From Candidatus Poribacteria bacterium (lineage in GTDB: Bacteria; Poribacteria; WGA-4E; WGA-3G): a DNA stretch of 64,000 bases. Positions within the stretch are counted from its first letter, which is position 1, and every line of letters begins with the position of its first letter. This document shows positions 49,143 to 55,396 of this stretch, piece by piece. The translations under genes were made by a program, and so were the position numbers. The notes under the pieces are model-generated. The model was not told the origin of the DNA. It worked only from the letters and a program-made list of their open reading frames with translations, and made no database searches. The DNA lies in assembly GCA_964291315.2 (NCBI GenBank), contig OZ219753.1, positions 128,001-192,000 on the forward strand. The letters run 5' to 3'.

Positions 49143-51029
49143 TTAGCGATGAAATCGGCGTTCCAATTCATCTCGCCCCATCTCAACGATGATAGGACGT
49201 GAGTGTGGACAATTGAAGGGTAGTTTTGCCTCGGATAACTCTTTGAGGAGGTTTATCATCTCTTTCGTATCCAATGTATCTCCTGCTTTAACGGCTGATT
49301 TGCATGCGACGGTTATCAAGGCGTTATCAATCGCTTCCGGGATTTGTACTTCGGTGTATGGTTGTGTCTGAAGTTTGTCGAGTAAATCTGTTACGGTTTG
49401 TGCTGCAACGCGTGTTGGTAATGGTGCCGGAATTGCGCGGATTAAAATAGTATTTCCCCCGAATTCGTCTAAGTCAAAACCGAGTGTTGTAAAAATATCT
49501 CTGTGAATTTTGAGGTTGCTGAGCTGCTCTGGTGTGCTTTCCAAAGTGACAGGTAATAGCAGTCCTTGCATAGGAATACCGCCGGTTTCCATCTGGTTAA
49601 CGAAACGTTCATAAAGCACACGTTCTGCGGCGACGTGCTGGTCGATAAAGAAAATTTTATCGTTCGACTCAACAACAATATAGGTTTGAAAAAGGTTTGT
49701 CTTCAGTTGGACGTTCTCGAAATCAAGTAGGCTGAGGTCTGCGTTTTCAGGGACCTGCTGTGGTGGTTGCACAACAATTTCAGCAGATGCAATTGGGGGT
49801 CGAGCCTCGTCGGTTTTCGGTAATGCCTGACCGGTTTTTGATTCCGAATTCCCACTTTCGGTTTCTATAGGGTTTTCTGGCTGCCCCGTAAATTGTGTCC
49901 GTTGCGTTTCGCTAGTGCCTGGGTGGGTGTTTGATGTACCGCGTGATCTGGAAATCCGTTGTGGTAAATTCATATTGCGGTTTTCAGTCTCTTCTGCAGA
50001 TTGCCTTGGTTCAACGGGGGTTTCGATTTTAGGAATGTACTTCGCTTTGTGGATAGCGTTGCGGAGCATTCGAACGATACCGCTATAAATGGTACGTTCG
50101 TTCCGAAAGCGCACTTCTATTTTGGCCGGGTGTGCGTTGACATCCACCGCTTCTGGTTCTAAGGTTAGAAATAGCAGCGCGACGGGCTGCCGGTCCTTGG
50201 CGATCATCGAATTAAGTGATTCTGTGAGGGCGGCGGCTATGATATGGCTGCGAATTGGGCGCTGATTGAGAAAAAAGAGTTGGTATTCACGGTTCGGCTT
50301 TGTGAATTCCGGTTTTCCGAGTAAGCCGTACATTTTCAAGTCGGGCAATTCTTCTGTGAATTCTATGAGGTTGTTAGCGAATTCTTTGCCGTATATGAGG
50401 CGGATCCGTTCCAAGTGTGAATCGCAGGCGCGGACATCGAGAATGGACCTCTTGTTGTGTTTCAGCGAAAAATGGAGACTCGGGTGGGCAAGAGCTGTCC
50501 ATGTTACCTGTTTGGTAATGTGATTTATTTCTGTAGTGTCGGTTTTCAGGAACTTCAGACGTGCTGGAACGTTGTAAAAGAGATTGTTAACTGACATGTG
50601 GGTGCCGGGAGAGCATCCGCTTTCCTGAACGGATCGAAAAACGCCGCCTTCAACGTTCACCTTTGTTCCGATGAGTGCGCTGGGCGTACGGGTGAGGAGT
50701 TCGAATTGTGAAACTGAGGCGATACTGGCTAAAGCTTCGCCACGGAAACCAAAGGTCTGAATCTGATCAAGATCTTCGATACGGTTGACTTTGCTCGTTG
50801 CGTGGCGTTCTAAGGCGAGGAGTGCGTCCTCGCGTTCCATCCCGAGCCCGTTGTCAGAAACGCGGATGAGGCGTTTCCCGCCGGCGCGAACTTCTACACG
50901 AATCGAGGTGCTTTCGGCATCTACCGCGTTTTCGACGAGTTCCTTGACGACTGAGGCAGGACGCTCAACGACTTCGCCTGCGGCGATCTTATTAGCGACA
51001 TCTGCAGAGAGTATTTTAATTTTGGGCAT
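49143..51029 (-). CDS. mutL: DNA mismatch repair endonuclease MutL
   Basis: IAAGEVVERP, GFRGEAL; endonuclease motifs DQHVAAERVLYE, ACK, CPHSRP. Confidence 0.97.
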   Translation of the reverse strand: MPKIKILSADVANKIAAGEVVERPASVVKELVENAVDAESTSIRVEVRAGGKRLIRVSDNGLGMEREDALLALERHATSKVNRIEDLDQIQTFGFRGEALASIASVSQFELLTRTPSALIGTKVNVEGGVFRSVQESGCSPGTHMSVNNLFYNVPARLKFLKTDTTEINHITKQVTWTALAHPSLHFSLKHNKRSILDVRACDSHLERIRLIYGKEFANNLIEFTEELPDLKMYGLLGKPEFTKPNREYQLFFLNQRPIRSHIIAAALTESLNSMIAKDRQPVALLFLTLEPEAVDVNAHPAKIEVRFRNERTIYSGIVRMLRNAIHKAKYIPKIETPVEPRQSAEETENRNMNLPQRISRSRGTSNTHPGTSETQRTQFTGQPENPIETESGNSESKTGQALPKTDEARPPIASAEIVVQPPQQVPENADLSLLDFENVQLKTNLFQTYIVVESNDKIFFIDQHVAAERVLYERFVNQMETGGIPMQGLLLPVTLESTPEQLSNLKIHRDIFTTLGFDLDEFGGNTILIRAIPAPLPTRVAAQTVTDLLDKLQTQPYTEVQIPEAIDNALITVACKSAVKAGDTLDTKEMINLLKELSEAKLPFNCPHSRPIIVEMGRDELERRFHR

Positions 51030-51401: not shown

Positions 51402-54400
51402 TCAATCTCTCAAACCCATCCGATATTTGATGTCGTAGTTGATGATGAAGTCTAATTCTTCGTCCGTGAAGCCGTAGTGTTTTGCGAGGACGCGGTCTAT
51501 TTCGTCTATGATGTGCTTGGATTTTTGAATTTTGAATAACTGCGTTTCAGTGCGTCCAGTTGATTTTTGGCTAACTTCCATTGTACTGTTCTGTTGTAAG
51601 TCTTCCAAATATACCTCTCCAAGTCGAAGGAGGCGAGGATCATTGAGTGCAGACTCAGGGATAGGAAAATTTTGGACATCATATGGATTAAGTGTCCGAC
51701 AATCTGACGTAATAGTATACCACCACCAAAAACTGTTGCTGCTCAGGATAGCGATAGATGGTTTTATCATTTCTTTTTTTGCCAAAGAGAAAGAGGTTTC
51801 ACGTGAGGAATGTCCTATTTTGCCGTTGATTTTGAATGCTGGCGGAAAATTAGTGAACACTTTCCAATATCTTCCACCTGAATTACGATAATAAACACGA
51901 TGTTCACTTTTAGCCATGAATAATTTTAAAACGGTTGGTACTCTCAGGTATTTCTCTAGTAGACCGTTCTCAATTTCTAACCCTAACTTTGGTGCCCAAA
52001 AGGCTGTCCTATGGCGTGGTATCTCTACGTATTTGATGTTGTACATCCGCAAATCTTTGCTGTGTGAATACCACTTCTGATTGTTTGTAGAAAAGGTTCT
52101 ACCTTGTTTTGAAGGGGTTGCGGTGAAAATAGTGAGAGCTCGACTCACTGTATCAAACAATTTACCGGGAGAATCACTATAGTTAGCATACCAGACATTA
52201 CGGTCTTTTTCTAAGAGGTTCTGGATAATTTTCATTCGTTGTGTGGAAACTAATGCAGAAGGAACAATCATACTCAAACAGCCTTGCTGATTTAGCAGAC
52301 CCAAACTGCTGTCGATGCACATTGCATGAATCGCGCGGGTTTCGTAACTAACAAAATTTGTATTTGGTGTATAGTCAATTTTGTTTGATTCAAGGTAAGG
52401 CGGGTTTCCGATGATGACATCAAATCCGCCGTCTTTGAGGATGCTGTAGAAAGCAATGAACCAGTGGAACGGCTTATGCGTGGCAAGCCATTTGTGGTAA
52501 TCTGTGATTACCCCCCCCCGCTTATATTATGTGAAGTGTTCACGCCATACTCACCCGCAAGATAGATGTTCAACTCATCTTCTAAGACACCCAGTCTCTC
52601 CCGCAATGCCTGCTTATCCGCACGCGTCACGACCCCGCCTAACGCCGTCTGTTGCCTGCGGAACGCTTGGAACAACGCATCTACATCCTCCGCCTTCTCC
52701 CGAAGCCGCCGCATCGTGCCGTCAAAGTCCAGCTTGCCCGTCACCGCTCGCTCTACCGCATCATACGTTGAGAACCCGACGAGACTATTCCCCGACTGAA
52801 TGTTAAAGTCGATGTCTGGCAACGGCTCTATCTGCCGCACATCTTCAATCTGTGAGACCATCTTCAGAAAGAGCCGGAGCTTACAGATTTCAACCGCCTC
52901 CGCCATGATGTCCACACCGTAGAGGTTATTTATCACAATAGACTTGAGGATAAAATAGGCTCTGTTCGGATGCTGCTCTATACGCCCGAGCGTCTCTCGG
53001 AAGTCAGCATAGCGCCGGCCGGCACCCGAGTCGTCGTTGAGGAAGGCTTGCATTCGGTCGAGACACGCCTCATAGAGCGGCACGAGGATATTCACGGCAG
53101 CGAAGAGGAACGCTCCCGAGCCACACGTCGGATCCAGGATGCTGATGTGTCTGATCGCCTGCCAAAACGCACGCAGCAGCTCGGGGCCCTCACATCCCGC
53201 GATTACATCCTGTGCGAACTGGCGGACATCTAGATTGTAGGTAATCAGATCGTTGATGCTCCCGATGTCTCCGTTCACCAGCTTCGCACGCAGCGTCTCG
53301 TAGCGTTGCCGTCTCGCAACGACTTCCCGCCATATCTCTGTCGGCAAGGCATACTCGGAAGGTGCAACGGTGTTCCAATCCGTGCGCTTAGAGACATCCG
53401 CAACCCCCGCAGCGATGTGGGGCGGCAACTCTAATTCAGCACCTTTGCTCACAGCAGCGTAGATATAGCGCTCCGGGGCATCTCGCAGCAATTGCCACAC
53501 CGCACCACCCGCCGCAAACGCTATCTCACACGACCGACGCGCCGCATCAAAGAGAAACGGAATAATCGTGTTTTTGCTGATATACTCGGTGATGTCTTCC
53601 TTGGTATAATAAGCACCCATCTGCTTCTGATTGATGTATTTCTCAAAGATATATCCCAGCACATCCGGGTTGATCTCCGTGTCGTTTTTCAACGGGCGAT
53701 CGTCCAAATGCCACTGATACGCATCAAAGAAGCCGAAGAGCTGCTCAAACGCCGCATCCGGGATCTCAATACGCTCCCCGTGATGCGTCTCTATGGCGTG
53801 CTGCTCAAAGATGCCGCCGTTGAGATACGGCACATCCCCGAGAAGCCCGACCACAGCTCTGCCCCGCTCTGCCTCCGGCTTTGCGAACCCTTCAAAGAAC
53901 AGCGGACAGAGAAACGATCTATAGTACCGGTCGCTGCCACTCTTTTGCGTCTCCGTCAACGTGTGCCGCAGATAGTCTGGGTCGCTGTTGAGAAACCCCT
54001 TCTTCTGAATGAAATAGATGAACATCAGCCGATTCAGCAGGATAGAGACATATGCGCGCTGCACCTCGGCATCCGGGATGCCCGTGAGGAAGGATAAGAA
54101 CGCCGTCTGCTCTCGCTTGAAGCGATCGTAAAACTTCTTGGTCACCCGCTCCGCATAGAACGCGCTCCCGACGCGACCTGTCACGTCAGAGAGTGTCAGT
54201 TCGGCTTCTTCTTCAAGACTGAAGGCGATCGGCTCTAACTTTTGTATCAGCGACTCCCCCGATTGCGCCGTGTGATACCTGTGCTCTCGGCAGGCATCCG
54301 GCTTGCCCGGCTCCCTTCTGACCCACTGCCAGAGGTGGGTTGTCCTCTCGGCATCCGTGTAGATGATAATATGCTCATGCGCAGAGCGTGCGACTTGCTG

Positions 54401-54631
54401 CTGGATCTTCCGGCGCAGCGCATAATCGGGGAGTTGTCCATCTGCGTCTGTTGCGTGGCATTCAAAGACGAGCATGCCGCGTTTCTCTGCGACTGCGGAG
54501 AGGTGCCACTCGACCGCATCTACGCGGATCTTCAGCGCCTGTGTGTAGTGATCCCAACCGAGTGCTTGGGTGAAGAGGGCGCTAAAGTTAGCCGCTCTGA
54601 GATAGTCAAGTATCTGTTCTCGATGAAGCAT
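51402..54631 (-). CDS. N6-adenine DNA methyltransferase (Eco57I-like gamma order), frameshifted at a G9 tract
   Basis: 5' frame has GAYYTK, ILDPTCGSGAFL, LYGVDI, PLPDIDFNIQSGNSL. The -1 frame after the tract reads VITDYHKWLATHKPFHWF..GGFDVIIGNPPY and runs unbroken into ORF 51402..52322, ending IINYDIKYRMGLRD. Confidence 0.9.
52511..52519 (-). repeat. G9 homopolymer tract (simple sequence repeat)
   Basis: Coding strand AGC GGG GGG GGG TAA. Longest G/C run I saw in the window. Confidence 0.95.
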
Positions 54632-54681: not shown

Positions 54682-54710
54682 ATCTTAAAGCTTTTTTGCA
54701 GAATTGTCAA
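54682..54710 (-). promoter_or_regulatory. Sigma70 promoter for the methyltransferase
   Basis: TTGACA-N17-TAAGAT, about 50 nt upstream of the ATG, with a GGGG SD-like site. Confidence 0.65.
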
Positions 54711-54976: not shown

Positions 54977-55396
54977 ATGTCCTCTCGTAGACAATCTCGC
55001 ATCACTGCGATGCAAATGTTATATCAGATTCACCTCATCGAAACGCCGGCGAAAGTCGTTATAGAACAGTTTTGCCAGAGCCAGAGCGTATCGGTAGAAC
55101 CTTGTTCCTTCGTAGTGCAACTCGTTGAAGGCACCACTGCATCTCTCGAAACAATTGACGCTTTACTTCAAAAGGTCTCTAAAAACTGGAAACTTCACCG
55201 GATGCCGATCGTAGACCTCTCGATCCTACGATGTGCCACTTATGAGATACTCTATCTCACTGATGTCGATCCAGCTGTCTCGATCAGTGAAGCTGTTGAG
55301 ATTGCCAAGACTTACAGCACGCTAGACTCGCCTAAATTCATCAACGGGGTCTTGGACAATGTCCGAAAAGAGCATCTTGATGCATCGAAGCCTTAA
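54977..55396 (+). CDS. nusB: Transcription antitermination factor NusB
   Basis: SRRQSRITAMQMLYQ, NWKLHRMPIVDLSILR, EAVEIAKTYS, FINGVLD. Confidence 0.95.
   Translation: MSSRRQSRITAMQMLYQIHLIETPAKVVIEQFCQSQSVSVEPCSFVVQLVEGTTASLETIDALLQKVSKNWKLHRMPIVDLSILRCATYEILYLTDVDPAVSISEAVEIAKTYSTLDSPKFINGVLDNVRKEHLDASKP

Follow-up and report, generated by a model that had tools for sequence, protein, structure and literature searches.

The window, by which we mean the whole 64,000-nt stretch of DNA analysed, carries a DNA-methyltransferase gene that is split at a homopolymer. Positions 52522-52508 of the minus strand read AGC-G9-TAA, with the G run itself at 52519-52511, and the gene frame is open on both sides. 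The gene is 3230 nt long and encodes 1076 aa if the run is given ten G residues, or 1075 aa if given seven. The features at the locus are these.

54682..54710, minus strand: promoter-like site TTGACA-17-TAAGAT, a consensus match only
52508..54631, minus strand: 5' ORF, the OFF product of 707 aa, with the N-terminal domain, a helical domain and SAM-binding motif I, and without NPPY and the target-recognition domain
54140..54631, minus strand: N-terminal alpha/beta domain (aa 1-164), weakly like a IIG nuclease domain, a candidate helicase docking domain
53114..53134, minus strand: motif I, DPTCGSG, nearly invariant across 71 homologs
52520..52537, no strand assigned: 18-bp dyad box (class RCTT-N10-AAGY) abutting the G run on its 5' side, scoring 12.7 bits with a matrix trained solely on relatives' boxes
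52511..52519, minus strand: G9 run; lengths of 7 or 10 keep the frame, whereas 8, 9, 11 and 12 break it
52496..52512, minus strand: in-frame TAA stop (52510-52508) within a 7-bp inverted repeat, the flank reading TAATC-NNN-GATWA
51402..52508, minus strand: 3' frame, 368 codons to the stop at 51402, with NPPY, a variable target-recognition domain and a conserved tail
52406-52395, minus strand: NPPY motif in the 3' frame
~52394-51516, minus strand: variable target-recognition domain in the 3' frame
49143..51029, minus strand: mutL, intact, 628 aa, with its own TTGACA-17-TATAAT site at 51329-51301, a neighbour outside the switch
54977..55396, plus strand: nusB ORF, divergent, a neighbour outside the switch

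An earlier sequence-only reading had placed the frame break at AGC-G9-TAA, with 1076 aa at G10 and the frame also restored at G7, and recomputation gives the same result. It had called the gene intact except at the run, which agrees with the open frames and with PADLOC model PDLC03628, matched end to end by the two halves over positions 3-719 and 725-1095 of 1100 (E = 3e-229 and 4e-61). The motif coordinates fall on either side of the run, so that the break does part motif I from NPPY and the target-recognition domain as that reading proposed, and the 3' frame has no ATG, GTG or TTG ahead of NPPY. The gene's own promoter, also claimed there, is found as the site at 54710-54682, at the level of a consensus match; it differs from a ~70-nt upstream block common to the six paralogs described below. 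The TAATC-NNN-GATWA flank is common to the window gene and three other methyltransferase families of the same genome. Five relatives were searched for the neighbouring genes, and since mutL and nusB are apart in all of them (not adjacent in three single-contig relatives, on separate contigs in the other two), an insertion boundary could not be drawn.

Profile, motifs and fold agree on a gamma-class N6-adenine methyltransferase with a C-terminal target-recognition domain. The nearest solved relative by profile is BrxX (E = 4e-11), and the nearest by fold, at E = 1e-8 to 1e-3, come from the set BrxX/PglX, CamA, DrdV and M.TaqI, the likeness being one of the gamma-class N6-adenine methyltransferase core, with TM-scores below 0.3 over the whole model. 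The N-terminal domain aligns to DrdV 2-141 with Z = 4.8 (rmsd 4.2, 115 aligned) and to BpuSI with Z = 4.0 (rmsd 5.0, 123 aligned), the top row being a racemase at Z = 5.5, and Foldseek gives it no match at E 0.001. Nuclease residues of the pattern D...(D/E)xK were sought in 55 homologs, across which no acidic residue is invariant and (D/E)xK is not conserved; hence we file the protein as IIG-like and not as a IIG member. In the model of an in-frame ortholog, the insert position is a low-confidence loop between two helices.

The length of the run was followed in contigs of four sequencing runs from one study, which may include the source sample. These contigs have G8, G9, G11 and G12. Variants were listed only above 1% of summed depth (~1,226 in X1, 97 in X2), contigs drop rare variants, and among the listed rows there is no +1 or -2 (in-frame) variant of the window locus or its six paralogs. 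Because the flanks are common to the paralogs, contigs with G8, G11 or G12 may derive from any of the copies. A 177-nt contig of run X2 covers 52484-52660 with no difference and no gap against the window, and this exact haplotype is unique to the window copy among the seven paralogs in the assembly, so that, as far as contigs can show, G9 is not an assembly error. The depth of the haplotype in X2 is ~4.4x single-copy.

The window gene is one of seven dispersed paralogs with run lengths kept at G8/G9. Their N-terminal halves are 93-96% identical and their target-recognition domains have diverged, three being 84-88% identical, one 56-63% identical to those, and the rest 25-35%. Four further families in the genome are built alike. 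G/C runs with similar flanks are found in 30 of the genome's methyltransferase genes, of which 28 are out of frame and 2 in frame. Among runs in long ORFs, 28/30 motif-flagged ones are out of frame versus 15/415 other homopolymers. Genome-wide counts of G/C runs are 3108, 510 and 47 at lengths 5, 6 and 7, then 45, 18 and 2 at lengths 8, 9 and 10, and TAA follows 45/65 runs of 8 or more versus 45/3618 runs of 5-6. The in-frame share of 2/30 differs from one third with P = 6.5e-4, for copies that are not independent, and with so few in frame a switching model needs counter-selection of the ON state or a bias in length.

Long-read assemblies miscall long G runs, and the library type of the sequencing runs is not on record, so we weighed whether a true G10 had been miscalled; the available text of PMC9187656 voices a caution on G runs as well. 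All 13 unflagged runs of G7, C7 or G8 within long ORFs are in frame, contigs give exactly G9, and a 590-contig relative (G003) likewise has out-of-frame G8/G9. Recent pseudogenes are the companion explanation, and substitution patterns indicate that purifying selection acts on both halves, including downstream of the break. Among the paralogs of the window-gene family, pN/pS is 0.20 upstream and 0.54 downstream of the run, and it is 0.22-0.51 in the other four groups. Strain differences in the out-of-frame half are synonymous in 8/14 of those listed (expected fraction 0.21, P = 0.003), and in locus-specific contigs 7/12 are (P = 0.005, worst case 0.014). Assembly error and ordinary pseudogene had been named as the refuting alternatives of the sequence-only reading; against the G9 contigs, the selection on both halves and the contrast of 28/30 with 15/415 out of frame, both are largely refuted, and we regard them as extremely improbable.

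It could also be that the DNA stays at G8/G9 and that all cells make a little full-length enzyme through RNA-polymerase slippage or ribosomal frameshifting, keeping so many enzymes tolerable. The absence of an ON allele among the listed contig variants of this species would be expected, as would run lengths held at 8-9 and the selection on both halves; the 7-bp inverted repeat and the stop come after the run, and frameshifted Mycoplasma bovis mod constructs leak, according to the part available of bioRxiv 10.64898/2026.04.01.715767. A -1 ribosomal shift, which the sequence-only reading had offered, fails as a general mechanism: 16 genes carry G8 and, with the context unchanged, need the opposite shift, and in 6 the sense strand has the run as C8. 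The cassette of box and run is moreover found in both orientations within one protein loop, the box lacks the covariation of an RNA hairpin, and length change is evident at the DNA level. Leakage as the main mode is thus unlikely, although some leak may accompany switching.

A relative designated G002 has 13 IS1595-methyltransferase copies identical over ~2,450 nt except for runs of G9-G16 (long runs that could carry consensus error), while their A8, T7 and A7 runs are constant. In-frame run alleles are present in other species, where 5/22 run-bearing methyltransferase genes are in frame, a share that fits one third (P = 0.21), and single-copy orthologs in other species bear the same kind of run.

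The sequence-only reading did not mention the dyad beside the run, RCTT-N10-AAGY, which is conserved and nearly restricted to one genus. The box is retained under coding constraint on either strand. Comparison of the loops indicates that the cassette arose several times here, in either orientation; a single origin of the insert in the window-gene family is rejected by an AU test (p = 2.8e-7) on a quick tree of 32 rows picked from 62, where a long branch carries the copies from this genome and the tested group was named after a first tree had been inspected. In family D, one of the four further families, the box and the run seem to have arisen jointly at the site, the box out of a near-match.

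Several readings of the box itself were tried. Away from runs it shows no enrichment (87 matches versus 94 in a shuffle) and its top matches flank runs, which argues against a general transcription-factor or LexA site. It is not an RNA hairpin, having no covariation (p = 1.0; the outer letters are fixed by the selection rule, leaving the inner pairs and the 0:17 pair as informative) and weak folding (mean -0.7 kcal/mol). For the window genome the search also speaks against a RAYT-mobilised repeat, PF01797 not being found there. Tyrosine-recombinase PF00589 is not found in this 95% complete genome and is present in 30/30 relatives; for an Xer/Int reading, five relatives gave no match to a dif-like pattern of our own making. 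Elsewhere in the genus such an origin of the box may still apply. At 29 intergenic runs, a strict SD+ATG rule finds a leader ORF in only 6, so that the idea of an attenuator is not confirmed for these. Pattern scans of metagenomes and viruses returned 7 and 2 loci, none matching the methyltransferase queries.

The other question is what the enzyme works with. The sequence-only reading took it to be solitary, which does not hold: beyond the six paralogs, the orthologs lie behind a PLD-nuclease/SNF2 helicase in 26/29 and 68/80 loci. That helicase (domains PLDc_2, SNF2 and Helicase_C) occurs once in this genome, adjoining a paralog other than the window copy, and this paralog is itself G9; six of the seven paralogs have no adjacent nuclease. 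The helicase gene is intact, with the HKD motif kept in at least 90% of 51 rows. A complex prediction of helicase 480-1131 with methyltransferase aa 1-345 scores 0.58 against 0.00 for the best control, in runs sharing at least 41% of contacts and with partner pLDDT at least 73; this is weak support, the mark being reached by 116/157 solved and 2/215 mismatched pairs, with only 18/157 solved pairs yet both mismatches at 0.60 or below. Families A, B and C have one nuclease/motor gene apiece, and for family D a confident restriction partner was not found.

This arrangement bears on the phasevarion that the sequence-only reading proposed, that is, on switching that mainly rewires host expression through genome-wide methylation. 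The switch in that proposal is supported, and a defence role suits the gene context better than the regulon that a phasevarion would need. A regulatory role would suit the six copies with no nuclease beside them, the N-terminal domain with no conserved nuclease motif and the lack of a confident partner for family D, and Cj0031 switching also alters transcripts (PMC4889913, available text). The cognate helicase-nuclease is nevertheless intact and linked in most orthologs, and the many diverged specificities fit defence, as does the same cassette ahead of DUF499/DUF1156 and DUF4007 loci. We consider the regulatory role quite unlikely. Less likely again is a silent archive, in which out-of-frame copies, with the run serving only to silence them, would store target-recognition domains and pass them by gene conversion to a locus that is expressed. 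The identities among the target-recognition domains and among the N-terminal halves do point to recombination among copies, and so does the ~4.4x depth of the window haplotype. With the helicase-linked copy also at G9, there is no expressed locus in the assembly; moreover, every copy has a promoter-like site and the single-copy orthologs of other species bear such runs.

The best explanation is, with reasonable probability, phase variation by slipped-strand mispairing, acting on a specificity subunit that is OFF by default in a two-gene restriction-modification-like system with a shared helicase-nuclease. The earlier proposal that a homopolymer turns an N6-adenine methyltransferase ON and OFF in a Poribacteria-type organism is thereby supported. 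The gene would supply the methyltransferase/specificity subunit and the PLD-nuclease/SNF2 helicase the other one; duplication would have given seven dispersed methyltransferase copies that differ in target-recognition domain, with the helicase remaining single-copy. The 18-bp dyad and the G run, as a short cassette, would occupy a loop at the protein surface, after motif I and before NPPY, and at resting lengths of 8-9 the product would be truncated and catalytically dead. When the DNA replicates, slipped-strand mispairing would bring a minority of cells to G10 or G7, reversibly at the window locus, and these would make a full, active enzyme that methylates a new site and, acting in trans, lends its specificity to the shared helicase-nuclease. 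Together with the four further families, a population could hold up to 28 switchable specificities, few of them expressed per cell, with phage defence as the presumed selective force. The 28 genes most likely make up a store of restriction-modification specificities, largely silent and switchable at random, and not a lone epigenetic regulator. Counting against this explanation are intact MutS and MutL in the genome, a second frameshift in motif I of one paralog and a downstream one in a family B copy, and the plain loop with no run in 22/28 readable genus orthologs.

A bolder conjecture, improbable in its entirety, is that the dyad binds a dedicated factor that drives the adjacent G/C run to grow and slip. 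It would then be a portable programmed mutation cassette, installed by one Poribacteria genus in promoter leaders, an IS and the loops of many restriction-modification genes, and in the window genome ~28 specificities, combinable with a small number of shared nucleases, would be under its control, while the truncated OFF proteins might serve as helicase decoys. In its favour are the retention of the box under coding constraint on either strand, its seeming formation at the site in family D, the lack of enrichment away from runs and the finding that it is no RNA hairpin. The shared dyad raises the question of whether the places where homopolymer switches appear can be programmed by the DNA that flanks them.

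Most known examples of phase-variable restriction-modification genes come from host-adapted pathogens. The uncultured Poribacteria lineage described here has ~30 such genes, almost all of them OFF, and many specificities to each nuclease. This is an extreme of bet hedging in population immunity that can be tested, since it predicts a mosaic methylome in which every motif is rare and goes with an in-frame run on its own molecule. In the full-text literature searched, with most subscription papers outside the scope, there was no account of the arrangement seen here, whether under phase variation, methylases or homopolymers in Poribacteria or sponge symbionts, under slippage in restriction-modification genes or under palindromes flanking poly-G tracts. 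No BREX gene set was seen adjoining the copies examined, and DISARM class I and BREX give only weak DrmMI, PglX and DrmD matches. GRINS are duplicated regions over 500 bp and over 80% identical with mean absolute GC and TA skew above 0.15 (PMC8256042); the paralogs are duplicates of that kind, with skews computed at third positions only, which is not the published windowed measure. For the intergenic cassettes, the comparisons are Streptococcus gallolyticus pil1, a leader-peptide repeat-length switch near the start of a surface-protein gene (PMC3894217), and the Bifidobacterium breve pilus G tracts, annotated OFF with in-frame minorities (PMC9187656); the available parts of these two papers describe no dyad box.

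Most similar is Cj0031 of Campylobacter jejuni NCTC11168, a large IIG-type N6-adenine enzyme with a variable target-recognition domain, split by a poly-G at position 2573 of 3732 that is ON at G9 and OFF at G10, is missing from its other alleles, and as a switch restricts phage 5- to 1000-fold (PMC4889913, as far as its available text goes). According to the same text, Cj0031 is a single gene whose product is also a nuclease, whereas the window family has seven copies and a separate PLD-SNF2 helicase, is ON at 7 or 10 with all copies OFF, and has the conserved dyad beside the run. The two-gene architecture is matched in Bacteroides ovatus CP083813.1, where a phase-variable Type II restriction-modification gene has a PLD and SNF helicase upstream (PMC9881135, Table 3, available part); the likeness seen is one of architecture, that system using programmed inversion at one locus and ours a homopolymer in dispersed paralogs. 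In the REBASE survey, as its available sections report (PMC5909438), 17.4% of mod genes are SSR-switched, G(n) tracts and environmental species included, and G9 tracts vary at 1.8-13.5 x 10^-3. Those sections give at most four Type III switches per genome, with regulons demonstrated and no shared flanking box described, in contrast to 28 OFF and 2 ON genes here, with a shared box.

The gene reads on the minus strand as AGC-G9-TAA at 52522-52508, and the ORF reading places its parts around that break as follows.

54631-52508, minus strand, 5' ORF of 707 aa
53134-53114, minus strand, motif I DPTCGSG, 5' of the break
52406-52395, minus strand, NPPY, 3' of the break, with the target-recognition domain (TRD) likewise 3'
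ending at 51402, minus strand, 3' frame open for 368 codons

Frame reconstruction gives 1076 aa with G10 and 1075 aa with two G fewer, and the 3' frame has no ATG, GTG, or TTG start before NPPY. The halves match consecutive stretches of PADLOC model PDLC03628, while GC goes from ~56% to 40% across the break. The sequence-only reading, in which the break at AGC-G9-TAA separates motif I from NPPY and the TRD and G10 or G7 restores the frame, is accurate. In the duplicated N-terminal half (window 52520-54631), third codon positions are rich in G and T, the reverse of what orthologs L002 and L010 show; this, together with the long branch that the seven copies of the family occupy in the tree, may be GRINS-like.

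Contigs of four sequencing runs of one study (X1-X4), one possibly the source sample, were compared with the gene, leaving out two other runs with a small share. A 177-nt X2 contig spans the G run with zero differences, in a haplotype that within the assembly is unique to the window copy. Indels listed over the entire gene are confined to the run, being -1 (X1, X3, X4), +2 (X1), and +3 (X4). Among contig variants above 1% of summed depth in X1-X4, a form of data that loses rare variants, none has an in-frame run length. In the host genome, control homopolymers with flanking frames of at least 150 codons are in frame in 400/415 cases, and those flagged by the flank motif in 2/30. The split gene is confirmed as an observation, and its earlier interpretation as a solitary, phase-variable epigenetic switch is borne out in part.

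The genome, 95% complete and assembled as 4.40 Mb in 4 contigs, contains 65 G/C runs at least 8 long, well over the extrapolated decay of shorter runs. Poribacteria are methylase-rich. In this genome 28 methyltransferase genes are split by runs.

Methyltransferase genes split by runs in the genome
Window family, 7 split genes, five G9 and two G8
Second Eco57I-type family, 8 split genes, all G8
Type III mod genes, five plus two split genes
Large mod genes, 6 split genes, C8 on the sense strand

The run is in frame in two single mod genes, both of which adjoin a res gene. Between genes there are about 30 more runs, most of them preceding, on the C-run strand, a gene that encodes a secreted or defense protein. 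At C4:330232, C4:775135, and C4:2769968 of this genome, and at loci L093 and L097, intergenic C runs fall inside short upstream ORFs that other run lengths would join in frame to long secreted-protein genes. At C1:317885-328646 (L032), the single res gene of its family comes after three consecutive Type III mod paralogs, all OFF. Window-family paralogs are 93-96% identical in their N-terminal halves. The TRD of the window copy shares 25-29% identity with the paralog TRDs and 60-74% with intact genes in other species.

Pooled and uncorrected, pN/pS among window-family paralogs is 0.20 5' of the run and 0.54 3' of it, and 0.22-0.51 in the other split-gene groups. In the out-of-frame half, 8/14 listed differences between X3 and the window are synonymous, against an expected fraction of 0.21 (P = 0.003); locus-specific contigs alone give 7/12 (P = 0.005, rising to 0.014 when two unlisted differences are counted as non-synonymous). 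Purifying selection acts on both sides of the run, and the window gene is not a dead one. A second frameshift is present in 2/28 split genes. The paralog at C1:360697 misses one base from a G3 within motif I, either a true lesion or an assembly slip.

Orthologs occur in 31/64 genus genomes, mostly single-copy and intact, and the nearest named records are Ca. Poribacteria. The description of the methyltransferase as solitary is not supported as to its kind: the orthologs mostly lie behind a PLD-nuclease/SNF2 helicase (26/29 and 68/80 loci, in overlapping sets). In the host genome a single gene encodes this helicase, with the HKD motif conserved, and the paralog at C4:3030805 follows it immediately. 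A single helicase of this type also goes with the second family there, and one mod family has one res gene; for family D a clear nuclease or motor partner was sought in this genome and none was found. The closest solved structures are BrxX/PglX, CamA, DrdV, and M.TaqI. The N-terminal domain is confidently predicted (pLDDT 91), but structure comparison of the model finds its likeness to IIG nuclease domains weak and no catalytic residues are conserved across 55 homologs, hence the label "IIG-like" for what the enzyme may be. Predicted with the helicase, the methyltransferase scores 0.58 versus 0.00 for the control, with contact agreement of at least 41% and partner pLDDT of at least 73. The calibration mark is reached by 116/157 solved and 2/215 mismatched pairs, and among pairs reaching it 18/157 solved and both mismatches score 0.60 or less. 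Support for the pairing from this prediction is weak.

The run adjoins an 18-bp dyad whose consensus is ACTTAAC-N4-GTTAAGT. In 52/65 genus genomes there are 221 AAGY-G8 sites (reversed control, 24), with RCTT exactly ten bases upstream in 153 (~2 expected), and the full RCTT-N10-AAGY plus run pattern is in 45/65 genus genomes and 2/111 others of the phylum. TAA follows 45/65 long runs versus 45/3618 short ones in the host genome. Of 80 loci, 5 could not be scored; of the other 75, 60 have the ancestral 36-nt loop, 11 have run-free in-frame inserts, and 4 have run-bearing out-of-frame inserts. In the genus, 28 loci are readable: the loop is plain in 22, holds a run-free insert in 1, and holds a run in 5, three of these in reverse orientation and two in frame. 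A quick tree requires four changes for the run-bearing rows, three forced by well-supported branches. A single clade of these rows is rejected by an AU test at p = 2.8e-7, in a quick tree of 32 rows from 62 in which the genome's own copies have a long branch, with the group named after viewing the first tree. In the model of one in-frame ortholog (pTM 0.42) the insert is a low-confidence loop joining two helices.

The junction is plain in 15 of 19 second-family relatives and has box and run in 2. It is plain in 14 of 19 family D relatives, already box-like, the other 5 having a run of C8-C11 that expanded in situ. The host genome's families B, C, and D have a box that is degenerate or on the run's other side. 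The box may have been carried along with a copied piece of leader, or it may be the binding site of a run-acting factor. The cassette of box and run also precedes three DUF1156 methyltransferase genes that are nearly identical, one DUF499/DUF1156 operon, and one DUF4007-PAPS-reductase locus (C1:9495, C4:2402822, C4:3144572, C4:939127, C4:1812833). At C4:342209, C4:3232136, and C4:2164490 the C run next to the box is shortened or broken up; these may be switches that have become fixed in a single state. A REP-like palindrome, CCCCYTGATAAGGGGG, present in 60/65 genus genomes in up to 371 copies and absent from the host genome, is inserted in frame in the same loop of family B (L225, L227); it has its 3' end in common with the cassette and is a possible source of it. 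In unrelated bacteria (L154, L191, L163) the loop carries in-frame inserts of short palindromic repeats, making it a general landing site. Tyrosine recombinase PF00589, found at least once in 30/30 genus relatives searched, was not found in the host genome, being lost or within the absent 5%.

In relative G002, 13 copies of a methyltransferase-carrying IS1595 (L051, L053, L055-L058, L062-L068) are identical over ~2,450 nt apart from the run, whose lengths are 9, 10, 10, 11 (five copies), 12, 13, 13, 14, and 16, with consensus error a possible contributor. Their A8, T7, and A7 runs are invariant, and the box is a half match only. Run length decides between three outcomes at the junction: a fusion, a longer transposase, or a stop codon that overlaps the start of the methyltransferase. 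Run-bearing methyltransferase genes met in relatives are in frame in 5/22 (P = 0.21 versus one third), in a non-exhaustive sample that includes two interrupted runs and whose pattern-derived part is blind to G7.

Slipped-strand mispairing would alter run length in the window gene and its kin, and would account for the contrasting phases found within one context, for the presence of both orientations, and for the range of lengths. Five of 6 independent designs are OFF at rest (P = 0.018), since resting lengths are 8-9 while ON is 7 or 10. Slippage into frame would give a cell one more methylation motif, presumably reversibly at the window locus and with an active enzyme, and, should the subunits pair in trans, a restriction specificity as well; phage may be the selective force. 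The chief rival explanation is recoding on the run at a constant low level, and recoding and switching can coexist (bioRxiv 10.64898/2026.04.01.715767).

Switching by mispairing would resemble the mode of action of the split methyltransferase Cj0031 (PMC4889913), and the two-gene layout is the same as that given for a Bacteroides ovatus locus switched by inversion (PMC9881135). HKD-helicase effectors (PMC12839542) and gonococcal R-M switches (PMC6789123) give context. A REBASE survey (PMC5909438) counts up to four phase-variable mod genes in one genome, a figure that this genome exceeds.
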